64,000 bases of DNA, from contig CAWJLW010000006.1 of the NCBI GenBank assembly GCA_963843795.1, forward strand, positions 1,054,001 to 1,118,000. The letters are read 5' to 3'. The notes beneath the pieces are model-generated. The model was not told the origin of the DNA. It saw nothing but the letters and a program-made list of their open reading frames with translations, and searched no databases. Below, piece after piece: positions 7 to 63,378 of this stretch. Position 1 is the stretch's first letter. Each line of letters begins with the position of its first letter. The translations under genes were made by a program, and so were the position numbers. The stretch is from an uncultured bacterium (GTDB lineage: Bacteria > Armatimonadota > Abditibacteriia > Abditibacteriales > Abditibacteriaceae).

Positions 7-807
7 CTATCTGAAAGCGATACCGAACAATTGTTGCGCGTTGCGCGCAGTTTGCGCGCCCAAGTCTTCAATTGTCACGCCGCGCAATTCGGCCAAAAAT
101 TGCGCCGTATAGGCCACAAACGCCGGTTCGTTGGTCTTACCACGTTTGGGAACCGGCGCGAGATAGGGCGCATCGGTTTCAATCAGTAAGCGTTCCACAG
201 GACACCATTTTGCGACTTCGCGCACGATGTGCGAATTCTTGAAAGTCATGATACCGCCGAAACCCAGGTAAAAACCCTGCGCAAGTACTTGCTGAGCCAA
301 TTCCCTGTCGCCGGTGAAACAGTGCACCACGCCACGCGCACCCGGTACGCTTTTTATTGCGTTCAGTAAGACTTGGTCGGCATCGCGATTGTGTAAAACC
401 ACTGGCAAATCGAGTTCGCGCGCGATTTGCATTTGCGCGCGCAAAACTTCGATTTGTCGTGCGCGCGTCGCGCCCGGATATTCCGCGTGCGAATCGTCGT
501 AAAACCAATCCAGACCAATTTCGCCGACCGCCACCATGCGCTGATTTTGCAACAATTCGCGCAATCTTTGCGGCGAACCGTCATCGTCCCACTCCAACGC
601 GCGCTGCGGATGCACGCCCGCCGACGCATAAATTTCGACGTTATGCGTTGGTTGTTGCAACTGTTGCTGGATAAATGTGGCTGTTTCCAAGCTATCGGCG
701 ACATTGAGAATCGCGCTGACATTCGCGGCGTGCGCGCGCTGTAAAACCGCGTCCCAATCGGACGCCAACTTTTCATCGGCCAAATGACAATGAGAATCGA
801 AAAGCAT
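7..807 (-). CDS. tatD: TatD family hydrolase/DNase
   Basis: DSHCH, GVHP, VAVGEIGLD, GVVHCF and LLIETDAPYLAP motifs. Start moved to ATG 807 because the longer ORF reads through the intergenic palindrome. Confidence 0.93.
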   Translation of the reverse strand: MLFDSHCHLADEKLASDWDAVLQRAHAANVSAILNVADSLETATFIQQQLQQPTHNVEIYASAGVHPQRALEWDDDGSPQRLRELLQNQRMVAVGEIGLDWFYDDSHAEYPGATRARQIEVLRAQMQIARELDLPVVLHNRDADQVLLNAIKSVPGARGVVHCFTGDRELAQQVLAQGFYLGFGGIMTFKNSHIVREVAKWCPVERLLIETDAPYLAPVPKRGKTNEPAFVAYTAQFLAELRGVTIEDLGAQTARNAQQLFGIAFR

Positions 808-848
808 AAAATCGGCCTGCAAGTACTTGCAAGGTGTAAAACGTAAAA

Positions 849-2132
849 TTAGCGGTACCAATCATCGCGCCGCAGCGGCAAATTCAGTTGTCCGCGTTTA
901 TCTGGCTTGGCCAAAAGGGTTTGAAAAATTGTCACGCGGTTGGTGCTGAAACCATAGGCCGAAGACGCCATATACAAACGCCACACGCGATAAGTCGCTT
1001 CATCGACGCATTGCAGCGCTCGCTCGCGATTGAGTTCCAAATTTTTCACCCAGTGGCGCAGCGTCAAGGTGTAATGTTCGCGCAACGACTCGACATCGCG
1101 CACTTCCCAACCGGCTTCTTCGGCACGCTGCAACGTGAGGTTTATCGGCACGGTTTCGCCATCGGGAAACACATAGGTGTCTATGAAATTGCCCGCTGAG
1201 GGCGGCTGATTGGTCGCGTTATACGCGATGCCATGGTTGAGAAAAACGCCCTGCGGCTGGAGATGCTCCAGAGCGCGCTCGAAATATTCGGCGAGCTTGG
1301 CGCTGCCGACGTGCTCGAACATTCCAATGCTTGCCAGCGCATCGTATTCTTGTCTTGTCTCGATGTCGCGGTAATCGCGTAATTGCACGCGACAGCGTGC
1401 GCTCAATCCGGCTTCTCGAATACGCTGGTGCGCAAGTTCAACTTGCGGCTCACTGAGCGTGATTCCGGTCGCATCGACGCCGTAATATTTGGCGGCGTGC
1501 ATCACCAGAGCGCCCCAACCGCAGCCCAAGTCGAGCAATTTTTGTCCGGGCTTCAAGCGCAACTTGCGACAAATTAAATCTAATTTCGCGGTTTGCGCAC
1601 TATCCAAATCGTCATTTTCGCTGGCGAAATACGCGCAGGAATAAACCATTTGCGCGTCGAGCCACAGACTGTAAAATTCATTCGACGCGTTGTAATGATA
1701 AGCAACGGCTTGCAAATCGCGTTGCGGCGAATGGCGTTCGCCTTTGAGTTGCGCCGGTGCGCGCGGTGTCAGATCGGTTTTGCTGCGCGGCAAGCGCAAC
1801 AATTTGATGGCCGCGCCCAATTTGCGCCCGACGCCTAGACGATTGAGTTCGAGTTCATCGGCCAAGCGCAAAACCGCTTCGATGTCGCCTTCAATGTCGA
1901 ATTCGTCGCGCAAAAAGCCTTCGCCCAAACCGCGTTCATGGCCGGATGCGAAAATCGTGCGCAACGCGCCGGGAAATTTCAAAACGACTGTCGCTGCGCG
2001 CGGCTTTTGATCGGGCCACAACGTGCCGTCCCACAAACGAATCGCGACGTTTTGCGCGCGCTCGCGGCCGACCAAGCGGTCTAAAACCGAAAGCGTGATA
2101 TGGCGCGCCTGAGAATTATCGGATGAAAGCAT
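849..2132 (-). CDS. Cyclopropane-fatty-acyl-phospholipid synthase family SAM methyltransferase
   Basis: HYN..NEFY..WLD, YSCAYF, LDLGCGWG, SIGMFEHVG, ESLREHY..TL. Confidence 0.9.
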   Translation of the reverse strand: MLSSDNSQARHITLSVLDRLVGRERAQNVAIRLWDGTLWPDQKPRAATVVLKFPGALRTIFASGHERGLGEGFLRDEFDIEGDIEAVLRLADELELNRLGVGRKLGAAIKLLRLPRSKTDLTPRAPAQLKGERHSPQRDLQAVAYHYNASNEFYSLWLDAQMVYSCAYFASENDDLDSAQTAKLDLICRKLRLKPGQKLLDLGCGWGALVMHAAKYYGVDATGITLSEPQVELAHQRIREAGLSARCRVQLRDYRDIETRQEYDALASIGMFEHVGSAKLAEYFERALEHLQPQGVFLNHGIAYNATNQPPSAGNFIDTYVFPDGETVPINLTLQRAEEAGWEVRDVESLREHYTLTLRHWVKNLELNRERALQCVDEATYRVWRLYMASSAYGFSTNRVTIFQTLLAKPDKRGQLNLPLRRDDWYR

Positions 2133-2167
2133 AGTGCAAGTACTTGCAGAGTTGTTTACGATTGTTT

Positions 2168-3250
2168 TTAGTCGATCAGCGTTTCGCGCCCGCTTTGTGC
2201 GCTTTGATAAATCGCATCAAGCATTTTCATCAGGGTCGCGCCTTGGGTGGCGTCGGGATCGGGAGTTTTGTCTTCTAAAATGCAATTGATGAAATGTTGC
2301 ATCTGGTTTTGCCACATGTCGCCAAAGCCGACTTCGATCATTTCGCTGTGCGGTTCGCCGTTGCGGTCGGTGTGAATTTTCACGGTTTCGCCCCATTCGC
2401 AACCGGCGTCGGGCCCGAAAATTTCTACGCCCTGTTGATCTTTTTCGGTGTGAATCGCCCACGAAACCTCGACATTAATGGTTTGGCCACCTTCAAAGCG
2501 AATCAATCCGACCGCCAAATCTTCCACATCGAAGGGCGCATTGTGGTCATCGTTGCGCGTGTTGCCTTTACCCAAGCCCTTACCAAGTGGCCCGAACTGC
2601 GCATAGGTCGCGCCCATCGCTGAAGTCGGGCGCGGACAGCCCATCAGCCACCACGCCACATCCAACATATGGACGCCAATATCGATAAGCGGTCCACCGC
2701 CGCTTTGCTCTTGGGCCGTGAACCAAGTGCCAAAGCCTGGAATTCCATAACGCCGCAGCCAGTAAGCGCGCCCGTAATAAGGCACGCCCATCGTGCCGTT
2801 TTCAATCCATTGCTTGAGATACAAAGCCTGCGGTGAAAAACGTTTGACCTGCGCGACCATGCATTTGCGCTTAAATTTGTCGGCTGCAAAAACAATTTCT
2901 TGTGCCTGAGCAGCACTTGTCGCGAGCGGTTTCTCGCACAAAACGTGTTTGCCCGCTGCGAGAGCGTCCATCGTGACCGGATGATGAAGCATATTGGGTA
3001 AGCACACCGAAACCGCGTCGATGTCATCGCGCGCCAGTAGTTCGTGGTAATCGGCCAAAATCGTCGCATCCGGTGCGCCATTTTCTTGCGCGGCGATGCG
3101 AGCGCGCTCGCGGTCTAAATCGCACACTGCAACGACCTGCGCTTGTGGCACACGCGCGTAACTTTTGATGTGAGAGCGCCCAATCCCTGCGCCAATGACG
3201 CCGATTTTGACGGCTTTTTCTGTGGTTTTCCTTGCGTGTTGCGATGTCAT
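2168..3250 (-). CDS. Gfo/Idh/MocA family oxidoreductase
   Basis: GVIGAGIG, GKHVLCEKP, GGGPLIDIGVH; ATG at 3250. Confidence 0.9.
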   Translation of the reverse strand: MTSQHARKTTEKAVKIGVIGAGIGRSHIKSYARVPQAQVVAVCDLDRERARIAAQENGAPDATILADYHELLARDDIDAVSVCLPNMLHHPVTMDALAAGKHVLCEKPLATSAAQAQEIVFAADKFKRKCMVAQVKRFSPQALYLKQWIENGTMGVPYYGRAYWLRRYGIPGFGTWFTAQEQSGGGPLIDIGVHMLDVAWWLMGCPRPTSAMGATYAQFGPLGKGLGKGNTRNDDHNAPFDVEDLAVGLIRFEGGQTINVEVSWAIHTEKDQQGVEIFGPDAGCEWGETVKIHTDRNGEPHSEMIEVGFGDMWQNQMQHFINCILEDKTPDPDATQGATLMKMLDAIYQSAQSGRETLID

Positions 3251-3352
3251 AAAATTCAGATTTCCCAAGCGATTGTAGCACGATAGGTTCGCATCATAAA
3301 GCACGCGCGTGTGTTGTCGGGCTTCCTTTTGCGCTGCGAGTACTTGCAGCGG

Positions 3353-3381
3353 TTGCGCAAAGAGGAACGGCCCGTTATAAT
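3353..3381 (+). promoter_or_regulatory. Sigma70-type promoter of rpsF
   Basis: TTGCGC (3353-3358), 17 bp spacer, TATAAT (3376-3381). Confidence 0.7.
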
Positions 3382-3400
3382 AAAAAGGCTTTCAAATTTG

Positions 3401-3506
3401 TCCTTCCTGCTGTTTGCACGCCATGTGCAACAGTCGTATCCGGTTCGCCCGCGTGAGTGCGGGTTTTAGACATGAAAGCTGAACCGAGATCGTCCAGGGG
3501 GAGGTG
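3401..3506 (+). promoter_or_regulatory. Structured rpsF 5' leader, candidate S6:S18 autoregulatory RNA
   Basis: TCCTTCCTG (3401) can pair with CAGGGGGAGG over the SD. Internal stems: TGTTTGCAC/GTGCAACA, CGGTTC/GAACCG, CCCGC/GCGGG. Confidence 0.5.
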
Positions 3507-3511
3507 AAAAC

Positions 3512-4135
3512 ATGGCAGAAGATACTACTCAAATCGACGAAACCGTCGCAACCGACGATGTCGATACCACGAACGTCGCAACTAGCGACGCTTCCGATAC
3601 CGAAGACAATTCGAGCGAAGCTGCAACCAGCGAAACCGCCGCAGGTGATGCCGCGGATGAAACCGCAGCGCCCGCCCAAACCGTTACTTCTGAAGTTTCT
3701 AATGATGATTCGTCTGATGACGATTCCTCTGATGATTCCGGTAGCGACAGTGCGAGCGAATCGCGCGCACGTCCCGCTTCCTCGGAGCTTTCCGAATCGC
3801 TGTCGCCTTTGGGTGACGTGAGCGAAGAGCGCAAAGAAGTCGAAGACGGTCGCTCTTACGAAATCATCTATATCGTGCGTCCCAGCGGCGACGATAGCAT
3901 TCAAAACGTGACCAATCGCGTGCGCACGATGATCGAAGAAGGCAACGGCGCCATCGACAACGTTCGCGTTTCTGAATCGCGTCGCTTGGCTTATCCCATC
4001 AAAAAAGAAATCGAAGGCTCGTATGTCGTTATCAATACGCGCTTCCACAAATCTCATTTGGATGAAATTAACCGTTTCTTCCAACTCGAAGATGCCGTTC
4101 TACGACACATGATCTTGCGCGAAGACGAAGCGTAA
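3512..4135 (+). CDS. rpsF: 30S ribosomal protein S6 with ~113-aa acidic N-terminal extension
   Basis: RSYEIIYIVRP...RRLAYPIKK...VLRHMI core; strong SD GGAGGTGA before ATG 3512; rpsF-ssb-rpsR order. Confidence 0.92.
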   Translation: MAEDTTQIDETVATDDVDTTNVATSDASDTEDNSSEAATSETAAGDAADETAAPAQTVTSEVSNDDSSDDDSSDDSGSDSASESRARPASSELSESLSPLGDVSEERKEVEDGRSYEIIYIVRPSGDDSIQNVTNRVRTMIEEGNGAIDNVRVSESRRLAYPIKKEIEGSYVVINTRFHKSHLDEINRFFQLEDAVLRHMILREDEA

Positions 4136-4220
4136 ATCAAACGAAATTTCATTTTTTGCGCCCCGAAAATTCAAAAATTCGGGGCGTAAAAAATGGTTTC
4201 AAAATTTTCAGTGAAATCAA

Positions 4221-4249
4221 TTGACGGGATACGCAAGAATTGTTAGAAT
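4221..4249 (+). promoter_or_regulatory. Sigma70-type promoter of ssb (extended -10)
   Basis: TTGACG, 17 bp spacer, TAGAAT preceded by TGn. Confidence 0.7.
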
Positions 4250-4347
4250 GGGTGTTGCCTTGTCCGAACCTGCGGGAAAATTTTCCAGTTCCGCGTCCAT
4301 GAATTTGTCGTTTCAGTGATTGGGGTTCGTCAAGAGAGGAGCCGAAA

Positions 4348-4953
4348 ATGCCGAGTTTAAACCGAGTGATTTTGATTGGCCGTTTGACGCGCGATCCCGA
4401 GATGCGCTATACGTCGTCGGGTTTGGCGGTCACGGGTTTTTCGATTGCAGTTGATCGCAATCGCAAGAGTGCCGATGGTCAGCAAAAGCAGACGGATTTT
4501 TTCCGTTGTAGCGCGTGGCGTCAGCTGGCCGAAATTGTCAACGAATATGCGCGCAAGGGCATGTTGGTGGCGATTGATGGCAGCATCCGCATTAACGAGT
4601 ATCAGGCGCAGGATGGCACGACCAAACAAAGCGTCGATGTAGATGTCGATAACTTTCAAATGCTTGAACGTGCCGGTGAAGCTGGCGTTGGTGGCGGCGA
4701 GAGCAGCTATCATCCCGACGATGAAGATCGTGCTCCGCGCGCTCCGCAGCGCGCCGCCGCTCCGGCTCGTGGCAGTCGCGATGACGATGAAGATCGTCCG
4801 GCGCGTCCGGCTCGTGCAGCGGCACCGGCAAGTCGTGGAGAGGCTCGTGGTGACGAGCGTCCGGCACCGCGCCGTGCGCCCGCCAAACCGGCTGCAGAAC
4901 CGATGTATCCCGAAGATGATTTCGACGACAGCGACCCGTTCGCTGATGAGTAA
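4348..4953 (+). CDS. ssb: Single-stranded DNA-binding protein
   Basis: LNRVILIGRLTRDPEMRYT OB fold; acidic tail DDFDDSDPFADE. Confidence 0.96.
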   Translation: MPSLNRVILIGRLTRDPEMRYTSSGLAVTGFSIAVDRNRKSADGQQKQTDFFRCSAWRQLAEIVNEYARKGMLVAIDGSIRINEYQAQDGTTKQSVDVDVDNFQMLERAGEAGVGGGESSYHPDDEDRAPRAPQRAAAPARGSRDDDEDRPARPARAAAPASRGEARGDERPAPRRAPAKPAAEPMYPEDDFDDSDPFADE

Positions 4954-4976
4954 AGATAGTTTCAGGAGTTGGAATC

Positions 4977-5234
4977 ATGCGTATGAACAGTAGCCGTTCG
5001 CGGCGTCCGTTGCGTCCCGTCAAAACCAAGCGCCCGCAGTATAGCGCCGAATTTATCGACGGACTCGACTATAAAAGCGCGTCGCAGTTGCGTCGTTTCA
5101 TTTCGGATCGTGGCAAGATTTTAGGTCGTCGCCACACCGGTTTGAACGCGCGCCAACAGCGTCACGTAGCCGAACAAATCAAGCGCGCCCGTTTCATGGC
5201 GTTGCTGCACTATACCGCCGATCAGATTCGTTAG
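4977..5234 (+). CDS. rpsR: 30S ribosomal protein S18
   Basis: LDYK...LRRFISDRGKI..RRHTG..QQR....IKRARFMALL. Confidence 0.95.
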   Translation: MRMNSSRSRRPLRPVKTKRPQYSAEFIDGLDYKSASQLRRFISDRGKILGRRHTGLNARQQRHVAEQIKRARFMALLHYTADQIR

Positions 5235-5260
5235 AGAATCGGATCGCACACGATGCGAAC

Positions 5261-5294
5261 AGGGTGACGGGGCGAAAGCCCGGTCGCCCTTTTT
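5261..5294 (+). terminator. Intrinsic terminator after rpsR
   Basis: AGGGTGACGGGGC-GAAA-GCCCGGTCGCCCT stem followed by TTTT. Confidence 0.7.
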
Positions 5295-5311
5295 GCGCGC
5301 GTGCCTTCAGA

Positions 5312-5424
5312 TTCAACGCGCAGAATGCGAAGGGCGCAAAAAACAGGAAAAATTTCGTGCCTGCAAGTACTTGCACCGCATAATCGCACCATTACCGAAA
5401 GCTTTTGCCGCCTTTGCGGTTGAA
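5312..5424. repeat. ~113-bp inverted-repeat element with central GCAAGTACTTGC (copy 1)
   Basis: Left arm TTCAACGCGCAGAATGCGAAGGGCGCAAAA; right arm reverse complement TTCAACCGCAAAGGCGGCAAAA; palindrome 5362-5375 at the centre. Confidence 0.6.
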
Positions 5425-5441
5425 GAAATGAGTTCTTGTCT

Positions 5442-6401
5442 ATGAAAATTTTAGGTCTTGATCTGGGCGGCACGACTTTCGCCGCCGCCGCCGTCGATGA
5501 AAAAGGCGCGATTTTTCACGAAACTGAAGAAGATACGCGCCAGCACGATGGACCGGATATTCTTTTGCCGCGCCTGGCTCAAGCGGCGCGCTTGGTCAAT
5601 GAACAATGCGAAAGTGCTGAAGCAAGTACTTGCGGCGCGCTGGGCATTGGCGTTCCCGGCGCGGTCAAGCATCGCGATGGAATTTGTATCTATGCGCCGA
5701 ATCTGGAAGGATGGCGTGATTTATTGGTCGCCGCACCTTTGAGCCAGGACTTAAATTTGCCGGTTTTTCTCATCAATGACGCCAAAGCCGCGACCTTAGC
5801 CGAAGCGCGTTTTGGAGCCGGACGTGGCGCGCAATCGATTTTGATGTTGACGCTGGGAACCGGCATCGGCAGCGGCCTCACGATTGATGGCAAATTGCAT
5901 TTGGGCGCGACGGATAGAGGCTCGGAAGTCGGACATATTACAGTTGATATCAATGACAAGCGCGGCAGTGCGGGCAATGTCGGAACTTTGGAGGCGATGT
6001 GCGGGCGCGATGCGATTGTGTGGCGCGCGATGCGTCATTTGACATGGGGCACAAAATCGCAATTGATTGATTTATGCAACGGCGATTTGACCAAGCTTAC
6101 TCCAAAAATTATCGCGCAAGCCGCGATTCTGGGCGACGAAATTGCCACGTTAACGATGGTTGAAACCGCGAGTTACTTAGCTGTCGGCATCACAAACGTC
6201 ATTCTCACCGTCGATGTCGAGCGTGTAGTTATCGGTGGCGGTGTGGCGCAGGCGGGCGATAGTTTACTGACACCGCTGAAGCGCGCTGTGCAAGCGCGCA
6301 CTTCGCGCATGACCTTCGATGTCGAACAAATTGTGCCTGCGCAACTGGGGCCAGACGCCGGAATTGTCGGCGCGGCGCAGTGGGCACGCGAACAAATGTA
6401 A
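5442..6401 (+). CDS. ROK family sugar kinase (glucokinase-like)
   Basis: GLDLGGT, INDAKAA.LAE, LTLGTGIGSG, EVGH, GGGV. Confidence 0.9.
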   Translation: MKILGLDLGGTTFAAAAVDEKGAIFHETEEDTRQHDGPDILLPRLAQAARLVNEQCESAEASTCGALGIGVPGAVKHRDGICIYAPNLEGWRDLLVAAPLSQDLNLPVFLINDAKAATLAEARFGAGRGAQSILMLTLGTGIGSGLTIDGKLHLGATDRGSEVGHITVDINDKRGSAGNVGTLEAMCGRDAIVWRAMRHLTWGTKSQLIDLCNGDLTKLTPKIIAQAAILGDEIATLTMVETASYLAVGITNVILTVDVERVVIGGGVAQAGDSLLTPLKRAVQARTSRMTFDVEQIVPAQLGPDAGIVGAAQWAREQM

Positions 6402-6409
6402 GTTTCCCA

Positions 6410-6521
6410 TTTCACGCAGAGCGCGGAGATTTCGCAGAAAAAGCAGATAAACCGAGAATTTCATCCTGCCAAGTACTTGCGGAAAGTTATCTGTTGAAAA
6501 CTTTACGCGCTCGGCGTGAAA
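6410..6521. repeat. ~112-bp inverted-repeat element with internal CAAGTACTTGC (copy 2)
   Basis: TTTCACGCAGAGCGCG ... CGCGCTCGGCGTGAAA (15/16 complementary); palindrome at 6470-6480. Confidence 0.65.
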
Positions 6522-6536
6522 CCAAACAAAAATATC

Positions 6537-9500
6537 ATGCAATTGTTGGATTTGCTGCATTCGATTCCGGTTCTGGCGCAGGCCGAACTGCAACTTAAAC
6601 CTCAAAACACGCTCTCGCTTTCAGGCGTGCCTTCGCCCGCGTGGGCTGTTGTTGCTGCCGACTTACAAAAGCGCAGCGGACGTGTGCTGATTCTGGTCGC
6701 GCCCAGCGAAGAAACGGCAGAAAACAGCACCAACGATTTGCGCGCCATTTTGGAAAATGAAGGCGAGGATAGCGTTCACGTGTTGTGGTATCCCGCGCCC
6801 GACCGCGACCGCGCGGGCGAAAACGCCGATCTCAATCCAGCTACGCCGCAACGTTTGGCCGCGCTTGAAGCGCTGCACAATGCCGCGCGTGGTGACGGCG
6901 ATCAATCGAAAGCGCTCATCATTGTGTGCACGATCACCGCGCTGGCTTATCCGACACTTCCACCCGATATCGCGCAAAGTGGCTACGATGAAATTGCGGT
7001 TGGCCAAACTCTACAACGCGAAGCGTTTATTGAACATCTCGCCGCGACTGGCTACGAGCGCGTCGTGCAAGTTGAAGCGCCCGGGCAGTTTGCTGCGCGC
7101 GGTGGTTTAATCGATTTTTTCGCGCCCGCTGAAGACGAACCTCTGCGCGTGGAATTGTTCGGCGAAGAAATCGATTCGCTGCGCCATTTCGATGTCGAAA
7201 CTCAGCGTTCGACCGAAAAAATTCAGCATTTTCGTTTGTCCTCGCCGCGCGAAATTTTTCTGACCGCGCAAAGCGGCGCACCGGTTGCCGAAGAATTGCG
7301 CGAGCGTTTGAAAGAACAAACTAAACGCTTGCGACAGCAAGGTGAAGACGACGCGGCGCAGAATTTGGAAACGCGCATCACGCGCGATATTGAGCGATTG
7401 GAGCAAGGTGTTTATTTTGCCGATTTGGAATTATACGCGCCGCTTTTGTATCCGCAACTGCCGACGTTATTGGATCATTTGCCCACTCAATCAATTGTGG
7501 TTTGGGCCGACCCCGAGCGCGCTGATAATCACCTGGGCCGCGTGCGCGAAGATTGGCTGGCGGCCAACGAGCGCCACGCCGAAACCGGCGAAGCCTTGCG
7601 TTTGCCGATTGCGCTAGCCGAATTCGAAGAGCTGCGCGAACGCGCTTGCAAGTACTTGCCGGTCGAATTTCACGTTGGTCAGGCCGATGGTGAAAATTTG
7701 GAAGTGCATCTGCCGCCCGCTTTTAGCGGCAAGTTGGATGCGTTCATCGAATATATCGGCAGCTGGACGCGGCGCGGTCGGAGAGCGGTCATTTCGACCA
7801 GTCACGCGCGTCGCGTGCGCGAAATTTTGGCCGATGGCGATGTGCGCCATGTGCATTTATTGGACGCGGTGAACGAAGTCGAAGACGGCGCGATTTTGAT
7901 TTTGCCTCAGCGCCTCACCGCCGGTTTTTCCCTTGGCGATGTTTTGGTTCTCACCGACAGCGAAATTTTCGGCTGGCAGCCCACGCAATCGCGCTTGAAT
8001 ACCAAACGGCGCGGCAAAAGAGGCGGCGAAGGTAAAAAGAAATGGAGTGAGAAATCGAGTGCTCTCACCAATTTAGCCGACCTGCGCGAAGGCGATTACG
8101 TGGTGCATATCAATCACGGCATAGCGCGTTATGGCGGCGTGACGCGGCGCGAAGTCGCGGGTGCCTTGAACGATTATTTGCAACTCGAATACGACGGCGA
8201 AGACCGACTGTATGTCCCTGTTGGGCAGTTGGATCGTGTGCAGAAATATCTTGGCCACGATGCAGTCGCGCCGCCGCTCACTTCGCTCAAAGGCGGTGGT
8301 TGGGAGCGCGCCAAAAAGCGCGTTCGCGAAGAAGCCGAGCGCGTGGCGAAAGAATTGGCCGCGCTTTATGCGGCGCGTGAACAAGCGGCCAAAGTGCCGA
8401 TTGGCGAAGATACGCCCTGGCAGCGCGAAATGGAATCGGCTTTTCCTTATGAAGAAACGCCTTCGCAGCTAACTGCGATCAAAGACACCAAGCGCGATTT
8501 AGAACAAGACAAGCCGATGGATCGCTTGGTTTGCGGTGATGTTGGCTTTGGTAAAACAGAAGTTGCTGTGCGCGCGGCGTTCAAAGTCGCGCAAGATGGG
8601 CGACAGGTTGCCGTTTTGGTTCCGACTACGGTTCTGGCGCAGCAGCATTACCAAACTTTCAGCGAGCGTTTGGCGCCGTATCCGATTCGTGTCGAAGTGC
8701 TATCGCGTTTTCGCACACCCGGAGAGGCGCGCAAAGTGATCGAAGATGTGCGCTTGGGCGCGGTCGATATTCTGATTGGCACACATCGCTTGCTGCAAAA
8801 CTCGCTGGAATTCCGTGATTTGGGCTTGGTCGTGGTCGATGAAGAACAGCGTTTTGGCGTGATGCAGAAAGAAAAACTCAAAGAAATGCGTCGCGAAGTC
8901 GATATTCTGACGCTTTCGGCCACGCCGATTCCGCGTACTTTGCAGTTTGCTCTGGGCGGAATGCGTGAAATTTCGCTCATCAACGATCCGCCGATTGGAC
9001 GTTTGCCGGTTCGCACCGTGGTTTCGCCGTTCAAAGACGAACTGATTCGCGGCGCGATTGAACGCGAGTTGGAGCGCGACGGGCAGGTTTATTACGTTCA
9101 TAATCGCATCGAGTCGATTTATCACATCGCGGAAAAAATCCGCCAATTAGTGCCGCGCGCGCGCATCGGCATCGGTCACGGACAGATGAGCGACGAAGAT
9201 TTGGAGCAAGTGATGCTCGACTTCGTGCATCATCGCACCGAAATCCTTCTGGCGACCACAATTATCGAAAATGGTTTGGATTTGCCAAACGTGAACACCA
9301 TTATCGTCGACCGCGCCGAGCGTTTGGGCCTGTCGCAGATGTATCAGTTGCGTGGCCGCGTCGGTCGCTCGAGCCGTCAGGCGTATGCGTATTTTCTGTA
9401 TGGCAGCCGAGGGCGCTTGAGCGAGGTCAGCGAAAACCGTTTCGCGGCGATTCAAGAGCACGCCGATTTGGGCGCGGGTTTTAAAATCGCCATGCGCGAT

Positions 9501-10181: not shown

Positions 10182-10210
10182 AACGTGTTGCAAGTACTTG
10201 CAGCACGTTT
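10181..10210. repeat. Extended palindrome centred on TGCAAGTACTTGCA (terminator-like)
   Basis: AAACGTGTTGCAAGTACTTGCAGCACGTTT, with one T.G mismatch. Confidence 0.75.
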
Positions 10211-10256
10211 AACAGTTAAGATTGTTTCATGCCGATAAATACGGGAAACTCTGACC

Positions 10257-12110: not shown

Positions 12111-12122
12111 GTGAGATGTTCC

Positions 12123-54158: not shown

Positions 54159-54202
54159 AAGCGCGTTAGCAAGTACTTGCGCAAGTACTTGCTAACGCGC
54201 TT
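54159..54202. repeat. Perfect 44-bp palindrome with two tandem copies of the 12-mer
   Basis: AAGCGCGTTA-GCAAGTACTTGC-GCAAGTACTTGC-TAACGCGCTT. Confidence 0.85.
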
Positions 54203-54229
54203 CAAGTGGTTTATGGGAATTTCTGTTGT

Positions 54230-54751: not shown

Positions 54752-54992
54752 AAAAGCCCTCCTGGGCACAATCAATGATTGCAGTGCGATAAAGCCTTTC
54801 GATTTTATCAAAAATTAGCTTTTTCGACAACCCTCACTAGATTTCATACTAGTTTTTCGTTCCGCGACGTCAGCGCCACGATTTGTCTCTTGTGTTGTCT
54901 TTCGTGCTGGAAAATAGATGCGAAAAGGCAGCCAACGGAACGTGAAAGCTTGTTTTGCTTCCTCTGACTGGCGCAAAACGCCAGAGGAAATC

Positions 54993-55742: not shown

Positions 55743-55773
55743 ATCAATTATTGAAATCGTCGTTTGATTTGTT

Positions 55774-55809
55774 AAATTGGTTCCTGCAAGTACTTGCAGG
55801 AACCAATTT
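55774..55809. repeat. Perfect 36-bp motif-centred palindrome
   Basis: AAATTGGTTCCTGCAAGTACTTGCAGGAACCAATTT. Confidence 0.8.
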
Positions 55810-55822
55810 TAGTTTGAGGACA

Positions 55823-56716: not shown

Positions 56717-56738
56717 TTTCTTGAGCAAATCGACACCA

Positions 56739-56772
56739 AAAAGCCGCTCATCAACTTCGATGAGCGGCTTTT
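56739..56772. terminator. Bidirectional intrinsic terminator without the motif
   Basis: AAAAGCCGCTCATC-AACTTC-GATGAGCGGCTTTT between convergent genes. Confidence 0.8.
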
Positions 56773-56780
56773 CTTGTTTT

Positions 56781-56819
56781 TGTACTGGCAAGCATTGGCA
56801 AGTACTGGCAAGTACTTGC
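56781..56819. repeat. 10-bp-period degenerate tandem array ending in an exact motif
   Basis: TGTACTGGCA AGCATTGGCA AGTACTGGCA AGTACTTGC. Confidence 0.8.
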
Positions 56820-56828
56820 TAACGGGGT

Positions 56829-57569
56829 TTAGCGTCCGCCAGTGCGCACTGAATAGGAATTCGTCGAGGTCGTGTTGCTGCCGCCGAATGTCACGCCGCC
56901 ACGTCGCCCGCCAATTGTTACGCTGCCATAAGCCGTAGAAGTGTTGCTATTAGGGTAACCGTAGCTCGGATAGGCCGGGTAGCCGTAACTTGGATAAGCC
57001 GGATAGCCATAACTCGGATACGTTTGCGTATAAATGGTCGTTCCAGCAGGCGCTGTCGTAATATACGGCTGCGTGTTGTAGTTTGGATTGGCCCAGTTCG
57101 GTATGATGTTGGGCGGCCCAATTGGTCCGTTGTAATAGCCACCGGGCGTAATAATCGTTGTATTCGGCGGATAAATCACCGTGGGCGGGTAAGCGTACTG
57201 CGGCACGACATAACCCGGCGGGCAGTAGCCTGGAACATAGGTGTATGTGCTGTCGATGCGAGTATTGGCGCGTGGCTCGAATGTGTTATTCGGACTGCCC
57301 ACACGAATGCGATTGTCGATGGGCGGCGGATTGTTGATCGAGAAAGTATCACGCCGATTGCTGGGTTTGAGTCGACCTGGTCCGTCATAAGAACCGTCAC
57401 GATGATTGCGATTTCCATCGCGGTCGGGCGCAGTCTGAGTAGTTTGTGTACTGCCATCAGGCCGCACTGTCACCCAATCGGCACGCGCTGGAACGCTCGC
57501 TAAAGTAAGCGCCAAGGCTCCCATCGCCAAATAGCGGGTGCCCGTCGATGTGTAATTTTCGTGATTCAT
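56829..57569 (-). CDS. Secreted low-complexity Pro/Tyr/Gly/Thr-rich protein
   Basis: SD GAGGAG, signal peptide ending ARA-D, three YPSYGYP(A) repeats. Confidence 0.75.
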   Translation of the reverse strand: MNHENYTSTGTRYLAMGALALTLASVPARADWVTVRPDGSTQTTQTAPDRDGNRNHRDGSYDGPGRLKPSNRRDTFSINNPPPIDNRIRVGSPNNTFEPRANTRIDSTYTYVPGYCPPGYVVPQYAYPPTVIYPPNTTIITPGGYYNGPIGPPNIIPNWANPNYNTQPYITTAPAGTTIYTQTYPSYGYPAYPSYGYPAYPSYGYPNSNTSTAYGSVTIGGRRGGVTFGGSNTTSTNSYSVRTGGR

Positions 57570-57700
57570 AACGATTCTCCTCTGCTATTATGTCTCTTTG
57601 TTCTAAAGCAACAGTGAGTAGGACGTTCACGCCGCGCTAATTGTTCAGATATTCTGCGCTTTCGGTGCCAAAAATTTTTTGCATTTGTTTGTAGCGCATT

Positions 57701-58486
57701 TCAATCGTCTTCTATTGTAAATAACCACAACACAGTTTTGTTCTTTCCGTCGACCGCATCGTTCACATTATGCGTTTGCATTAGCGAATTTAATTTTTGA
57801 GCTTTCACATGGCCGTCGCAGTACAAAACATTGGTCGTTTCCAGATGCCGCTCGACGATTTTATCCAACTGACGCTGACCGTTGATAATCGTCACCGGCG
57901 GCACGCTCGTGGCATCGGCCCAACTAAAGCCGTAAGATCCATTGGCTTCCTCGCGGTTATTCGTATCAGTGGCCCAAACAATTTGCGAAGGCGAACCTAA
58001 CGACGCCAAAGTCACTGTATAAGCCGCCGAACGTGGCGGCGTTTGCGCATCGCCTGCATTGCGATAAGCGCCATTTTGTCCGTACGAACCGTAAGCGATG
58101 CTGCTTTTCCCGTTGGGGATGTTTTTGCTGTAAACAAAGCTCGCGCCACCATCGCTGGGACAAACGAAAATCTGCTCGCTTTTCACATACGGGTAAATTG
58201 CGTCCATCCATTTATACGCTGTGCTATTATTGGTTTCATTGGCCACGCCGCCGACCGCTGAAGGTGGCAACGACTCGTCATAATCCCCGATATATTGCAG
58301 CAAACCTAGACCGATTTGCTTCAAATTCGATTGGCAACTGGCCCTCCGCGCATTTTCGCGCGCACGCGCAAAAACCGGAAACAAAATGGCGGCGAGAATG
58401 GCGATTATCGCTATCACAACGAGCAGTTCAATGAGCGTAAAAGCCGATTTACGACGGTGCAAGTACTTGCGGGACAGTAGAAACAT
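57701..58486 (-). CDS. Prepilin-type N-terminal cleavage / DUF1559 / H-X9-DG protein
   Basis: [62 protein letters not shown]. Confidence 0.93.
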
Positions 58487-59564
58487 GATCGGGGTGAAAA
58501 AGTGTCAAATTATCGCGGTGAATCGCTTCGCGTGGTGCGGTTCGATTCAGAACTACAGAGACTTGGGACGAATGTCGGCCCGCAATGCTCCGCAAATCCG
58601 CAGCCGAAAAATTGCTAACGCCGCGCCCATACTCGCCGCGTTCGTCGCAAATCGAAACTGTTTCACCCGCTTCGAAGTCGCCTTCGACACTGATGATTCC
58701 AATCGGCAATAGCGACGATCCGCGCTGCTGTAAGATTTCGCGCGCTTCGCTTTTCATCATCAATCGGCCACGCGTTGTCCGTCCATAAGCGATCCAGCGT
58801 TTGCGTCCACTGAGAGTGGCGACCGGCAAAAATCGCGTGCCGATGCTTTCGCCACGCGCCACGCGACTGACAATTTCGGGCGCGCGCCCATGCGCAATCA
58901 CAAATTCAATTCCCGCTTGTGTCGCAATGCGTGCCGCTTCGATTTTGGTTTTCATGCCGCCAGTTCCGCCAACTGAACCTGCGCCACCTGCTGCGGCTTC
59001 GATTTCCGGTGTGATTTGCGCGATTAAGTTTTCTGGCGCCGATTTTTCCGGCAGATAAAAACCGTCGATGTCGCTCAACAACAAGACGCAGTTCGCTTCT
59101 GCAACGAGCGCAGTCAAAGATGCCAGCGCGTCGTTGTCGCCGAAGCGAATTTCTTCTGTCGCGACAGTGTCGTTTTCGTTGACAATCGGGACGACATTCC
59201 ATGAAAACAACTGCGTCATCGTATGGCGAGCGTTCAAAAATCGCCGCCGGTCACCTATGTCGCCGCGCGTCAAAAGCAGTTGCGCGACCGGTAACTGATG
59301 GCGCTCGAACGTGCGCCGATACGCGCGCATCAGCAAACTTTGCCCAATCGCAGCGGCGGCTTGTTTTTCTGCCAAAGTCACCGCGCGCGCGCGTCCGATA
59401 ACGTCCAAACCCACGCGCACCGCGCCGGACGTGACAACGACTACGCGCCAATTTTCCGCGCGTAATTCGTCAATCTGATTCGCCAAATCGTCAAGAAACT
59501 TTTCATCGACGGCACCATCCCGAATAAGCGTGCTGGTGCCAATTTTCACCACTAACGTTTTCAT
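58449..59564 (-). CDS. proB: Glutamate 5-kinase
   Basis: [39 protein letters not shown] domain. Confidence 0.96.
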
Positions 59565-59573
59565 TTGTGTGTC

Positions 59574-59688
59574 TTCAGTGCGCCGCAAAGTCTGCAAAGG
59601 GAAAAGAAAAATGAGAAAACAGCCCGGCAGGTACTTGCAGGGCGAATTCTTCCAAGCTCTTTGCGTGCTTCGTGTCCTTTGCGGTGAA
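59574..59688. repeat. ~115-bp inverted-repeat element with central GCAGGTACTTGC (copy 3)
   Basis: Left TTCAGTGCGCCGCAAAGTCTGCAAAG; right reverse complement TTCACCGCAAAGGACACGAAGCACGCAAAG; motif variant at 59627-59639. Confidence 0.5.
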
Positions 59689-59690
59689 TG

Positions 59691-60998
59691 TTATTCTTCA
59701 AATTCAAAAGCAATTTCGCCAACATGAACCAAATCGCCCGGCTTGACGCCCGCTTTTTTCATATCTTCCAACACGCCCTGCTGCTCCAGCAGGCGATGTA
59801 CATAAATCACCGCTTCGTGGCTTTGAATGTCAAAACGCTCAATCGTGCGTTCGAGCAAACCGCCACTCGCTTCCCATTCGCTCATGCCATCGGCGTAGCG
59901 CGCGATTTCTTTAATGCCGAACGGCTTCTGCGGATCAACGCGCGTGAGGGTTATCTCCGGCGGAATCTCGACGTTGGCATTTTCCGCACGCGCCACATCG
60001 ACCAGTTCCTGAATGCGCCACATCAGCGGCGTCAAATTTTCGCCGGTCGCAGCGGAAATCTCGAAAACTTCGCAGCCGCGCGCCAGTAATTTCGCTTTGA
60101 ATTGCGCCACTTCATCTTGATATTCTTCGTCGCCCGCGATGGCGTCAATTTTATTGATCGCCACTAATTGCGGACGTTCGATCAATTCGGGCTGCCACAT
60201 TTTTAATTCGCGATTGATGCTCATAAAAGCGCGCCAAAGCTGGGTGCAAGTACTTGCACTCGCGTCCAGCAGATGCACGAAAACCGGCGCGCGTTCGATG
60301 TGCTTTAAAAACTGATGGCCTAAGCCCGAACCTTTGTGCGCGCCACGAATCAGGCCCGGAATATCGGCTGCCACGAACTGATTCTCGGCATCCAAGCGCA
60401 CCACGCCCAAGTTCGGCACTAAAGTTGTGAACGGATAATCGGCGATCTTCGGAGTGGCCGCAGAAACCGTTGAAATTAATGTGCTTTTGCCCGCGTTGGG
60501 CAGGCCGATAAAGGCCACGTCCGCCAGAATTTTCAAGCTGAGTTTCACGTTGCGCAGTTCGGCTTTGCCACCGCGCTCGGCAAATCGCGGCGCCTGCCGC
60601 GTCGAAGAAACAAAGCGTGGATTGCCCAAACCGCCCTTCCCTCCGCGTGCCACGACAACGGTTTGGCCATCGGCCAATAAATCGGCCAGCACATTTCCAG
60701 TTTCGCTGTCAATAACCTGGGTGCCAAGCGGCACGGAAAGCACGATATCTTCGCCATCGCTGCCTTTTTTGCGCCCGCCCTGTCCGTGTTGCCCGCGCTG
60801 CGCTTTGTAATGCCGCTTGCGTGAAATGTCGATTAGCGTTTTGACTTGCACCGCAGCGCGCAAAATCACGTTGCCGCCATCGCCGCCATCGCCACCGGAC
60901 GGCCCGCCATACGGCATATATTTCTCGCGGCGAAATGCGACGACACCGTCGCCGCCGTCGCCACCTTTGAGTTCTAACGTCGTTTCATCTATAAACAT
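59691..60998 (-). CDS. obgE: GTPase ObgE
   Basis: MFIDE..GGDGG.G.VAFRREK, GLPNAGKST, DYPFTT, DIPG, NKID, C-terminal OCT domain. Confidence 0.97.
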   Translation of the reverse strand: MFIDETTLELKGGDGGDGVVAFRREKYMPYGGPSGGDGGDGGNVILRAAVQVKTLIDISRKRHYKAQRGQHGQGGRKKGSDGEDIVLSVPLGTQVIDSETGNVLADLLADGQTVVVARGGKGGLGNPRFVSSTRQAPRFAERGGKAELRNVKLSLKILADVAFIGLPNAGKSTLISTVSAATPKIADYPFTTLVPNLGVVRLDAENQFVAADIPGLIRGAHKGSGLGHQFLKHIERAPVFVHLLDASASTCTQLWRAFMSINRELKMWQPELIERPQLVAINKIDAIAGDEEYQDEVAQFKAKLLARGCEVFEISAATGENLTPLMWRIQELVDVARAENANVEIPPEITLTRVDPQKPFGIKEIARYADGMSEWEASGGLLERTIERFDIQSHEAVIYVHRLLEQQGVLEDMKKAGVKPGDLVHVGEIAFEFEE

Positions 60999-61020
60999 AA
61001 TTGGGTGCTGATAATCAGCA

Positions 61021-61049
61021 AAAAGCCGCTGCAGTTGTTCGCAGCGGCC
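61021..61049 (-). terminator. Terminator-like hairpin between the DUF2945 gene and obgE
   Basis: Minus strand GCCGCTGC-GAACAACT-GCAGCGGC-TTTTT. Confidence 0.6.
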
Positions 61050-61072
61050 TTCATTTTAACATTAAGCTGGTT

Positions 61073-61282
61073 TCATGAACGCTTGCTCAGCGCGTCCGGC
61101 TTGTGAATCGCGTGTGCGCCGGTCTCATCGCTTTTCACTTCATACTGTGGCTCGTCTTCGCTCGCGCGCACTTGATGGCCTTCTATATGTGTGTCGATCG
61201 TCACTTTGCGCACGACCGTGCCCTCAATTTTACCTTGCGAAGAATTCCAACTCACTTTGTCTCCCTGCTTGAAATCGCTCAT
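61073..61282 (-). CDS. DUF2945 (HVA1, Tudor-like) small protein
   Basis: FKQGDKVSWNS..G.I.G.V...ASEDEPQYEVKSD.TG..A.HKP.AL; SD GGAGG. Confidence 0.85.
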   Translation of the reverse strand: MSDFKQGDKVSWNSSQGKIEGTVVRKVTIDTHIEGHQVRASEDEPQYEVKSDETGAHAIHKPDALSKRS

Positions 61283-61316
61283 TCTGCCTCCTGGAATTTC
61301 AGGTTCAGGCAAGCAA

Positions 61317-61350
61317 AAACGACGCCTGCAAGTACTTGCAGGCGTCGTTT
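61317..61350. terminator. Perfect 34-bp motif-centred palindrome after rpmA
   Basis: AAACGACGCCTGCAAGTACTTGCAGGCGTCGTTT, with a U-tract on the minus strand. Confidence 0.8.
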
Positions 61351-61381
61351 CGATGCAAATCTCAATGTAAATGCAGCGAAT

Positions 61382-61669
61382 TTACGCAGCGGCTTCTTCG
61401 GCGACCGGCGCGGGATGCACCGAGATTTGACGACCACTGCTTTTGGCGCGGTGGCACGGCTCGAAAGTAACTACGCCGTGAACTTTGGCGAACAAGGTGT
61501 GATCGGTACCCAGACCAACGTTCGTGCCTGGGTGAAATTTCGTGCCGCGCTGGCGCACTAAAATGCTGCCAGCAGTAACGGTTTGACCACCAAACGCTTT
61601 GACGCCCAAACGTTGAGAATTGGAATCGCGCCCGTTGCGCGAACTGCCCATGCCTTTCTTATGTGCCAT
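61382..61669 (-). CDS. rpmA: 50S ribosomal protein L27
   Basis: [32 protein letters not shown]. Confidence 0.98.
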
Positions 61670-61687
61670 TGAATTTGTCCTTTGTGT

Positions 61688-61999
61688 TTAAACAGAAATG
61701 CTATCGATGCGCAGCAAAGTTTGGTGCGCGCGCGAACCAATGCGGCGGCGATAATTCTTCTTTGCTTTGTACTTGAAAACGTTGATTTTCGGCCCTTTGC
61801 TGTGACGAACGACAGTCGCTGCCACTTTAGCACCCGAAACTGTGGGCGCACCGATCTGCATGTCGTCGCCTTCGCCAACCATTAAAACTTCGACGCCTTC
61901 AAAATTGCTGCCTTCGTCGTGATGCAAGCGATCTACCAAAAGCTCTTGGCCATCTTGTACACGAAATTGTTTGCCGCCCACGCGGATTAATGCGAACAT
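61688..61999 (-). CDS. rplU: 50S ribosomal protein L21
   Basis: MFALIRVGGKQFRV, GAPTV.GAKV, KYKAKKNYRR. Confidence 0.96.
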   Translation of the reverse strand: MFALIRVGGKQFRVQDGQELLVDRLHHDEGSNFEGVEVLMVGEGDDMQIGAPTVSGAKVAATVVRHSKGPKINVFKYKAKKNYRRRIGSRAHQTLLRIDSISV

Positions 62000-62050
62000 A
62001 ATTTTTCTCCCGACTAATCTGTCTTTGACTCTCTTAAAAACGCCCAGCAA

Positions 62051-62079
62051 ATTTTAGCAGCATCGCCCCTCAACGTCAA
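62051..62079 (-). promoter_or_regulatory. Sigma70-type promoter of rplU
   Basis: Minus strand TTGACG, 17 bp spacer, TAAAAT with extended TGn. Confidence 0.7.
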
Positions 62080-62098
62080 TGTCGGGATTCGAGCACAC

Positions 62099-62128
62099 TT
62101 GCCGCAGGTCGGCTGGACGCGCTATAAT
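62099..62128 (+). promoter_or_regulatory. Sigma70-type promoter of rpsB
   Basis: TTGCCG, 18 bp spacer, TATAAT. Confidence 0.65.
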
Positions 62129-62145
62129 TACAGGGTTTGTTATTT

Positions 62146-62222
62146 CGCACCCCGTTCGTTTTGGGTCGGTTCTTATTTTATCAAGGAATCGTAAACCGGA
62201 TGTGGGGATGTGTAACCCAAAG
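62146..62222 (+). promoter_or_regulatory. Candidate S2 (rpsB) leader RNA with pseudoknot
   Basis: CGCACCCC/GGGGATGTG stem; TTGGGT (62161) complementary to ACCCAA (62215), which lies just before the SD. Confidence 0.6.
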
Positions 62223-62229
62223 GAGATTT

Positions 62230-63318
62230 ATGCCCGTCAGTTCAATGAAAGACCTGTTGGAAGCCGGAGTTCACTTCGGTCATCATACGCGCAAGTGGAA
62301 CCCGAAAATGAAACGTTTCATTTACGGTGAGCGCAACGACATTTACATCATCGACCTCCACAAAACCCGCAAAAAACTTGAAGAATGCTACGAAGAAGTG
62401 CGCAAGCGCGCTTTCAACGGCGACAAATTCCTCTTTGTCGGCACCAAAAAACAAGCGCAAGATTCCATCGCCGAAGCCGCGCAAGAATGCGGCATGCACT
62501 TTGTCAACCATCGTTGGTTGGGCGGAATGCTGACCAACTGGCAGACGATTCAGGCGCGCATCGACCGCTTGAACCAGCTCGACAAGATGAACGACGATGG
62601 CACGATGGAAAAATTGCCCAAAAAAGAATCGGCGCGTTTGAACGAAGAGCGCGACAAATTGCAAATGACGCTCGGCGGCATTCGTAATATGGGCGGTTTG
62701 CCGGACGTGCTGTTTATCATCGACTGCAAGAAAGAACACATCGCAATTCAGGAAGCGCATCGCTTGGAGATTCCGATTGTTGCGGTGGTTGATACCAACT
62801 GCGATCCCGACGAAATTGATTATGTAATTCCGGGTAACGACGACGCGATTCGCGCCGTGAAACTGATGGCATCGCAGATGGCCGAAGCGATCAACGAAGG
62901 TCGCGGCATGGCGCAATCGGCGCGCGAGCAGGTCGCCGAACACGTTGGCGAAGCGGGCGGCGCGGTGCATATCGGAGAAGGTGGCCGCATCGAATATGTT
63001 GGCGCTCCGCAAATCGAAATGCCGCCGGTCGAAAATAGCGACGGTAGCAACGATGACGACGATGTGACGATGGACAGTGTTGACCTTGCGAATGCGCGCA
63101 AAGATGGCGAAGACGACGACGTGGTCGCAGAAGCCATCAATAGCGACGCGGTCGGCGTGATTGCCGAGCGCACCGGCGATCAATCCATTGCACGTCAGGA
63201 AGCGATGGGCGATGATCAACCGACTCAGGCGATGCACGCCGTCGAAGCCGCTGATCAACGCATCGGCAGCGCGCAAAGCGATCCGGCGTTAGCGGTTGGC
63301 GCAGGCGAAGAACAGTAA
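62230..63318 (+). CDS. rpsB: 30S ribosomal protein S2 with long acidic C-terminal tail
   Basis: [36 protein letters not shown]. Confidence 0.97.
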
Positions 63319-63329
63319 AAAGGACGTGG

Positions 63330-63378
63330 AACGCCGTGCAAGCACTTGCAGAACTTCCGCAAGTACTTGCACGGCGTT
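63330..63378. terminator. Inverted pair of motif copies forming a hairpin between rpsB and tsf
   Basis: AACGCCGTGCAAGCACTTGCA-GAACTTC-CGCAAGTACTTGCACGGCGTT followed by TT. Confidence 0.7.

Follow-up and report, generated by a model that had tools for sequence, protein, structure and literature searches.

To our knowledge, long sequence-specific tags for DNA uptake have been described in few lineages only, and the cause of highly iterated palindrome 1 (HIP1) of cyanobacteria is still unsettled after three decades. Repetitive extragenic palindromes (REPs) are abundant in intergenic DNA and have a partner, the REP-associated tyrosine transposase (RAYT), and Chi and the FtsK-orienting polar sequences (KOPS) are asymmetric words polarised along the replichores. 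Here we describe a dispersed word, the 12-bp palindrome GCAAGTACTTGC, in an uncultured bacterium of the family Abditibacteriaceae (phylum Armatimonadota; assembly GCA_963843795.1). The window analysed is the 64,000-nucleotide stretch from 1,054,001 to 1,118,000 of contig CAWJLW010000006.1, and the word was followed from there through the whole assembly and into related genomes. We put at about an even chance that it is a self tag of the DNA-uptake-sequence kind, accumulating through biased uptake.

The closest parallels are the DNA uptake sequence (DUS) and the uptake signal sequence (USS). In the sections of PMC7371117, PMC3458573 and PMC7811141 on which the comparison is based, these tags, like the present word, occur in thousands of copies at roughly kilobase spacing (2,567 copies here, with a median spacing of 1,340 bp), form species dialects round a shared core, are tolerated in genes, become rarer in constrained genes and acquired islands, appear as foreign dialects on mobile DNA and are co-opted as terminators. 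The Haemophilus USS has one-sided phased T-tracts (PMC3458573, section on flanks), like the one-sided flanks of one relative, G007. The present word differs from both in sequence and phylum, in its palindromic form, in phasing that extends ~60 bp on two sides and in that a single copy makes a terminator; the non-palindromic form typical of DUS and USS is found only in relatives (G006, the metagenome locus L215 and G007/G016/G018). By analogy, the word would work as DUS and USS do, yet it is not fileable as a member of either, being palindromic and having an uptake role argued from likeness.

With HIP1 (GCGATCGC) and the alternate HIPs, as presented in parts of PMC4390886, PMC5861425, PMC13756078 and bioRxiv 10.1101/2024.09.10.611283, it shares the character of a highly iterated palindrome in coding and non-coding DNA, variants that differ between lineages, an orphan methyltransferase conserved in the lineage and a suggested part in transformation. 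The differences are a length of 12 bp as opposed to 8, another core, a marked preference for intergenic DNA, sister words that are asymmetric and flanks phased at 10.5 bp, a feature that those parts do not describe for HIP1. As to methylation of the core, the likeness extends to a candidate only: an orphan enzyme is present, and depletion of GTAC tracks it partly. The palindrome is not HIP1, since the word differs from GCGATCGC and the described variants and the host is not cyanobacterial; homologues of one of its genes are labelled Abditibacterium and Abditibacteriaceae. The RAATTY word of Campylobacter jejuni (CtsM) is likewise a palindromic self-mark for uptake tied to a methyltransferase, but a short degenerate 6-mer (PMC10046745, in part), and RAATTY is not enriched here (observed/expected 0.83-1.02 in 18 genomes). 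Like REP/RAYT and NTS/Ssn elements (for Ssn, the relevant part of PMC11893778), the word is an abundant, mostly intergenic palindrome that forms some hairpins; unlike them, it flanks no nuclease or transposase gene, arises mostly by substitution, is unclustered and has many copies in genes. It is set apart from Chi and KOPS by being a palindrome and by the strand balance of its asymmetric sister words (15 stretches of 20 kb examined).

In the window, 42 exact copies of the 12 bp lie between 281 and 63370, and in 100 dinucleotide shuffles of the window the count averaged 0.00 and never exceeded 0. The 14-mer occurs 23 times and the 16-mer CTGCAAGTACTTGCAG 15 times, and 10 one-mismatch variants span 3336..63349 (at 3336, 6469, 18276, 20350, 22519, 38635, 43202, 56798, 59627 and 63338). 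By our own gene calls, 32 of the 42 copies are intergenic (26 in tandem, 3 in convergent and 3 in divergent gaps) and 10 are coding, a split that is approximate because the gene caller was home-made and the assembly contains indels. These figures agree with the about 42 copies, 10 near-variants and 31 intergenic copies reported in a first-pass annotation made from the letters alone. Across the assembly (4.30 Mb, 11 contigs) there are 2,567 exact copies, or 0.60 per kb, and 506 one-mismatch variants; the enrichment is not limited to one contig, because copies sit on all 11. On contig C6, where the median spacing given above was taken, the density is flat (47-83 per 100 kb between 0.1 and 3.6 Mb) and unchanged across the GC-skew switch point, and island stretches are depleted.

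The palindrome is real and no assembly artefact, a concern that the first-pass annotation had raised. A contig from the public run X1, which may be the source sample, bridges 13838-14209 with 0 differences and includes the intergenic copy at 13900..13911, which has no significant hairpin (z -1.7); no polymorphism at copies of the word was seen in that run, in which coverage was patchy. An independent 2.9-kb contig, L020 (JBPCNJ010000134.1), is 77% identical to this genome and carries the word at orthologous places, among them one that is intergenic and one at which L020 has the exact word and this genome a form with one mismatch. L020 was the sole informative one of 36 single matches from a scan covering 15 of the 64 parts of a genome collection. 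It has been binned as Gemmatimonadaceae, probably wrongly given its word and identity. Frameshifts in pilC, fusA and rpsG and a 289-base homopolymer run (C6:397450-399090, 2625477-2628460 and 529517) point to long-read errors in the assembly.

The word is written into genes as well as between them. Coding copies number 749 of the 2,567; tandem gaps contain 1,229, convergent gaps 297 and divergent gaps 270, with 22 edge or partial cases. In all, 72% of copies are outside genes; gaps of at least 40 bp are occupied by a copy in ~50-76% of cases, except for short divergent gaps (5/22). Five synonymous shuffles of the proteome yielded 0-5 coding copies versus the 749 observed, and the core encodes 118 of the 133 ASTC and 550 of the 932 QVL peptides of the proteome. 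QVLA is the commonest reading of coding copies (491/749), as in the tatD copy of the window (281..292, minus strand); the copy in the ROK kinase gene (5622..5633, plus strand) reads ASTC and that in mfd (7648..7659, plus strand) reads (C)KYL(P). Five relatives align without gaps across the mfd core, with other residues there. In codon alignments to 15 relatives, the core was gap-free in 53 of 66 comparisons and gapped in 13, versus a background of 3%. The alignments show that the coding copies are mostly derived by substitution; the excess of gaps may mean that variable loops are favoured or that some copies are insertions. Five of 20 coding copies coincide with the own spelling of the congener G001, a count uncontrolled for protein constraint, and 0 of 27 coincide with words of three genus-g6 genomes.

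The distribution of coding copies points to a limit on what each further copy adds. The 150 genes with the strongest codon bias have 0.04 copies/kb and those with the weakest 0.25/kb. Closer than 100 bp to an intergenic copy the coding density is 0.075/kb, and at 1.6-2.5 kb it reaches 0.35-0.5/kb; the same profile for three control words is roughly flat, on small counts. Up to 300 bp from a gap, coding copies number 0.108/kb (85 copies) beside occupied gaps and about twofold more, 0.234/kb (117 copies), beside empty ones, an effect that is weak in the most codon-biased third of genes. Because coding copies thin out near intergenic ones, the gain from each new copy saturates at ~1-2 kb. Spacing is even, and copies are present even inside the ribosomal-protein operon. 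No cluster exceeds three copies, and a search for dense clusters that might mark an autoregulated gene returned only 9 triplets beside unrelated genes. The 16S and 23S rRNA genes have 0 copies, a weak deficit against the ~3 expected; these genes (16S at L439:3228-4750, 23S-5S at L440:7273-10445) lie ~3 Mb apart on C6, being either unlinked or separated by an assembly effect.

The first-pass annotation had held the flanks to be mostly unrelated and the 12-14-mer itself to be the conserved unit. Neither statement survives, as the unit is larger. The core is sharp, and the flanks hold a soft symmetric consensus, approximately AAAA-GCGCG-CT on the left and mirrored on the right, besides the covariation of terminator arms described below. 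The site-averaged A/T content oscillates on both sides with a period of 10.5 bp for ~60 bp each way, with peaks ~14.5, 25, 36 and 46 bp from the centre and troughs at 19.5, 30.5, 41.5 and 51 bp. The amplitude is 0.047 for coding and 0.052 for intergenic copies, with at most 0.015 in seven control word sets per class, and it decays from 0.118 (10-31 bp) through 0.033 and 0.017 to 0.011 (73-94 bp) with a phase that stays constant to ~90 bp. The rhythm is kept in the 1,922 C6 copies that have no neighbour inside 150 bp (0.040) and is absent from 2,422 other GTAC sites (0.002). At single sites, the phasing scores of the left and right arms are uncorrelated (rho -0.08 to 0.07). The phased A/T flanks are predicted to bend DNA at the site.

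A survey of relatives, read over 8-220 kb each, revealed that at least 10 of 27 family genomes bear a species-specific word at 0.6-1 per kb, either a palindrome with an AGTACT core or an asymmetric word. The exact 12-mer occurs 0-3 times in each of 40 relatives, and AAGTACTT does not exceed 97 occurrences in any of 250 other phylum genomes, a sample that lacks G001; AGTACT occurs 2,813-4,733 times in 6 of the 31 class genomes. The AGTAC(T) core was found in 7 of 27 family genomes and at the metagenome loci L214-L217, the palindromic dialects being CAAAGTACTTTG in G001, TCGAGTACTCGA in G009, G015 and G019, and CGAGTACTCG in G012, with AAAAGTACTTTT at metagenome loci. Asymmetric words are AGTACGGTCG in G006 (2,567 times, often as an inverted pair), the similar AAAAGTACGCC form in L215, and CGTGGCTG in G007, G016 and G018 (2,676-3,503 times; 3 of 31 genomes). 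The word is re-spelled between congeners at 65% amino-acid identity. In most other family genomes, no dispersed word was seen in the 10-100 kb sampled from each, and the tags are scattered patchily over a GyrA tree of 27 genomes, which therefore implies losses or repeated gains.

Flank phasing recurs with the dialects, in G001, G009 and G012 (0.018-0.025, above the 99% null) and in G007 on one side (0.057 vs 0.025, with a 99% null of 0.031), palindromic dialects being phased on both sides; G018 is one-sided too, with just 18 sites, G016 is a borderline case and G006 shows no clear phasing. The proposal of the first-pass annotation, a dedicated signal like HIP1 or an uptake sequence that is present throughout the genome and specific to the lineage, is supported. 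That annotation had not recognised the motif as a described one, and no match to a published repeat family turned up; neither the 12-mer nor a tag system of Abditibacteriaceae was found among the literature matches listed, most subscription journals being uncovered. The tag system is family-wide and not found in print.

Several other repeats were encountered in the same material. The loci L200-L201 of G006 show the asymmetric word AAGTACGGTCGAAT, one letter off what we take to be the Haemophilus USS core, probably by coincidence. A RAYT-like gene has a repeat of its own (L001:1378-1800), and there are GTAG-type repeats in G017 (L202), a local repeat array in G002 (L236) and GTCATTCTGAG-type repeats in G007 (L196-L197). 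Four viral records contain the 12-mer (20, 5, 3 and 4 copies) and were rejected as support; G041 and G043 overlap G042 at 99.9-100%. Phage G042 (L224-L227) has 39% GC and different flanks, and in it GTGCAAG-NN-CTTGCAC, with 20 copies exact and 17 of a centre variant, is often placed just upstream of ribosome-binding-like sites; its proteins give only generic matches to this genome, and the copies are probably an unrelated phage operator. Phage G044 (L228-L232) holds ~50 copies of the odd-centred TTGCAAG(A/T)CTTGCAA, which, like the G042 words, are probably phage-specific operators or promoters.

Stretches that lack the word have the look of acquired DNA. The two longest copy-free stretches, 26 kb each, contain open reading frames (ORFs) that on reading are transposase-like or restriction-system-like. 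The last 33 kb of C6 (C6:3590136-3623414) are also copy-free, with ORFs that read as VirB-like and 64% GC across the last 28 kb; this end may be a recent conjugative element or a chimeric join. Contig C2 (C2:1-18681), with metal-transport-like genes, carries 5 own copies and 7 foreign-dialect words of four types; the genome has 74 foreign words in total, and C2 makes up 0.4% of its length. Genome-wide, the densities of the own word and of the G001-type word are not correlated. The mosaic on C2 suggests passage through several family members and is comparable to neisserial islands, which carry ancillary DUS dialects (PMC7371117, in the part concerned).

The palindrome has a second job at the ends of genes. 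At least eight of the ten arm positions are paired in 71% of the 297 convergent copies, 27% of the tandem, 11% of the 270 divergent and 1% of the 749 coding ones; arm covariation is strong in convergent gaps (z 5-15) and nil within genes, and the hairpins of terminator-type copies run into T-runs. Because extended pairing is concentrated in convergent gaps and rare in divergent and coding copies, the terminator role is secondary. RNA folding of eight window copies gave its two clearest hairpins in convergent gaps. At 16909..16942, a copy that has been extended into a perfect hairpin, preceded by an A-run and followed by a T-run, is predicted to be a bidirectional intrinsic terminator (-29 kcal/mol, z -6.8, with 0 of 200 shuffles equally good), and at 39166..39200 a second copy has grown into a predicted terminator hairpin (z -4.6, 0 of 200 shuffles). 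Three copies share one divergent gap (28088..28289), a place where a terminator is not expected, and two copies abut at 54169..54192 (spacing 12). Because the present dialect is a palindrome, a single copy can double as a terminator stem, and asymmetric dialects use an inverted pair instead; such pairs were found in G006 (64/110) and L215 (8/12).

We searched for genes that might read or maintain the word. The first-pass annotation saw no such gene in the window, and the Pfam matches of 46 window proteins are indeed to housekeeping or general families; two proteins had no match. Elsewhere, this genome has comEC, comEA, dprA and a pilB/pilT-type locus with pilin-like genes. It also has an orphan beta-class methyltransferase (C6:2517365-2518135; L302:1486-2253, minus strand), whose closest solved relative is M.RsrI and which has no conserved neighbour gene. 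The enzyme is present in 21 of 31 class genomes, including all seven of AGTAC type as well as G007 and G018, and is confined to the family among 251 phylum genomes (0 of the 227 sampled outside it), with 56-75% conservation and stops in G022 and G013. It occurs also in 12 family genomes with neither tag type detected and was not found in G016, whose tag is GTAC-free, so that it is neither necessary nor sufficient for a tag. GTAC, our guess for its target, is the most depleted 4-mer in 14 enzyme-bearing versus four enzyme-lacking genomes (log2 -2.19), a contrast in which one clade supplies three of the four comparison genomes and from which the enzyme-lacking but GTAC-poor G016 (0.07), G002 (0.28) and G025 (0.23) were left out. 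At sampled loci, GTAC is nearly absent (1-15% of expectation) and CTAG very low in genus g5 and much of g2 (G005, G008, G011, G013, G014, G016, G018, G022, G024, G225 and G259); GTAC recovers in the G010/G021/G023 clade, where the enzyme was not found.

Searches for other factors were mostly negative. GAATTC, RAATTY, GANTC and GTWWAC gave no methyltransferase-linked signal, and GTTAAC is, on small counts, scarcer in genomes that have the enzyme. This genome yielded neither a D12 or C5 methyltransferase nor a Vsr; MutH was absent from it and from all of the 10 tag-bearing genomes, and a PabI-type enzyme from the five genomes searched, this one included. A histone fold was absent from 5/5 genomes, and HU was single-copy and ordinary in 5/5. 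One type IIA A-subunit match was found in each of 29 of 31 class genomes and no second such topoisomerase; alignments of GyrA, HU and ComEA showed nothing tag-specific, and a codon-bias screen for an abundant small basic protein gave no clear candidate. Most family members have a GyrA insertion of ~11-16 residues, from which G003, G017 and the outgroups are free.

Reading the word as an uptake tag is favoured because dialect turnover, lineage losses, the island pattern, saturation, terminator co-option and one-sided phasing all fit it. A sequence-specific DNA-bending protein of the natural-transformation machinery would read the word, binding the core and bending the flanks; uptake is believed to start with internal kinking of DNA. 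Tagged DNA would then be taken up and recombined preferentially, and this bias would write the word by point mutation until most fragments were tagged, that is, until most DNA lay within ~1-2 kb of a copy. Protein binding of the word, bending by the phased flanks, a reader that acts in the uptake step and biased uptake rather than selection site by site are steps that we infer. Of the three kinds of cause that the first-pass annotation had proposed, uptake fits best; a link to methylation is no more than suggestive, and a nucleoid protein may yet be the cause.

Several observations weigh against an uptake tag. Described DUS and USS are not palindromes and this word is a perfect one; it is also sparser, at one copy per 1.7 kb as compared with one per 400-1,100 bp for DUS (PMC7371117, in the relevant part). 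Phasing to at least 60 bp exceeds the two USS tracts in length and would be in keeping with a chromosomal protein that wraps DNA, and a repair ratchet equally predicts saturation on the kilobase scale (PMC4390886, in part). No receptor gene is identified for the candidate tag; comEC (30/31) and dprA (29/31) are equally common in genomes without a detected tag and, being class-wide, therefore do not discriminate the tag-bearing ones. The link of the GTAC-free CGTGGCTG word to the same system is one that we infer. The split pilC in the assembly might also be held against uptake; fusA and rpsG are likewise split, so sequencing indels are the probable cause.

The long symmetric phasing is best accounted for by an abundant dimeric nucleoid or chromosome-organising protein that wraps ~110-130 bp, with selection keeping a site every 1-2 kb. 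The A/T phasing is dyad-symmetric, of constant phase and decaying from 0.118 to 0.011, copies near to one another keep helical phase (144 pairs, period 10.5, R 19.3 with a maximum of 10.1 in 500 jitter nulls), copies are spaced evenly even within the ribosomal-protein operon, and a structural role has been proposed for HIP1 (in part of PMC5861425). The arms of single sites are uncorrelated, however, and relatives have words that are asymmetric and flanks phased on one side, which makes two-fold symmetry dispensable. Congeners at 65% amino-acid identity re-spell the word and sampled DNA of the other family genomes examined showed no tag, and an essential structural site is therefore hard to sustain; with no histone fold and an ordinary, single-copy HU in five of five genomes, we regard such a protein as unlikely, though not far-fetched. 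Somewhat less likely again is a ratchet of the HIP1 type, in which the orphan methyltransferase marks the central GTAC and a methylation-directed nicking or repair step favours the fixation of mutations that create the preferred context, up to ~1 site per kb. The family-confined enzyme in all seven AGTAC-type genomes and the depletion of GTAC that goes with it would suit this, and the kilobase saturation matches Elhai's prediction (PMC4390886, section 3.4). Yet the enzyme is found in 12 family genomes with no detected tag and not in G016, its specificity is a guess, and three GTAC-poor genomes that lack it stand outside the 4-mer contrast. Per position, GTAC-breaking one-mismatch variants (140) and GTAC-keeping ones (366, from twice as many positions) are about equally common. 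Searches found MutH in none of the 10 tag-bearing genomes and neither Vsr nor a PabI-type gene in this one, and the phased flanks and GTAC-free words are left unexplained.

The remaining candidates fare worse. A mobile hairpin of the REP-like or Ssn-associated sort, with a transposase or nuclease acting on single strands as its means of spread, would agree with the 72% of copies outside genes, the occasional hairpins and the gaps at the core in 13 of 66 comparisons versus 3%, but it is largely refuted, and very improbable, because most coding copies are substitutions and no partner RAYT or Ssn gene is flanked by the word. There are no long conserved ends and no clusters above three; the only Y1 transposase is a weak single match flanked by a different repeat, and no small GIY-YIG protein is found in this genome, only frames of 672 and 450 aa. 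That the copies are a homogenised family of intrinsic terminators has the convergent-gap covariation and the hairpins followed by T-runs in its favour; as the sole cause it is refuted, and we give it only a slight chance, since extended pairing is found in just 1% of coding and 11% of divergent copies and coding copies keep the flank rhythm. The slightest chance falls to strong gyrase sites with a 4-bp staggered cut on GTAC. Gyrase supplies the only type IIA A-subunit per genome (29/31), and the E. coli gyrase motif is symmetric, ~130 bp long and periodic (PMC6379681, in part), but its consensus A/T peaks lie ~19, 29, 38, 50 and 61 bp from the centre (supplement, as excerpted), so that the flank peaks here are anti-phase to it, and GyrA has no tag-linked change.

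The family offers one clade with many palindromic and asymmetric dialects and apparent losses of the tag, and it includes a cultured species. With this spread of dialects, phylogenetic profiling can find the reader, and drive, repair and architecture are open to direct test; the saturation scale of 1-2 kb and the 10.5-bp flank rhythm are predictions that can be checked on HIP1. The dialect words are usable as species barcodes, both for binning, where they exposed L020, and for tracing the donors of islands. As a broader picture, which we hold tentatively and at somewhat less than an even chance, the Abditibacteriaceae would have evolved an uptake-signal system independently, with an undescribed receptor and a core set in a bend-programmed arm of ~60 bp. 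Its spellings would switch between asymmetric and palindromic forms from species to species, genomes and proteomes would have been rewritten within a genus, and islands passed between species would carry mixed dialects.

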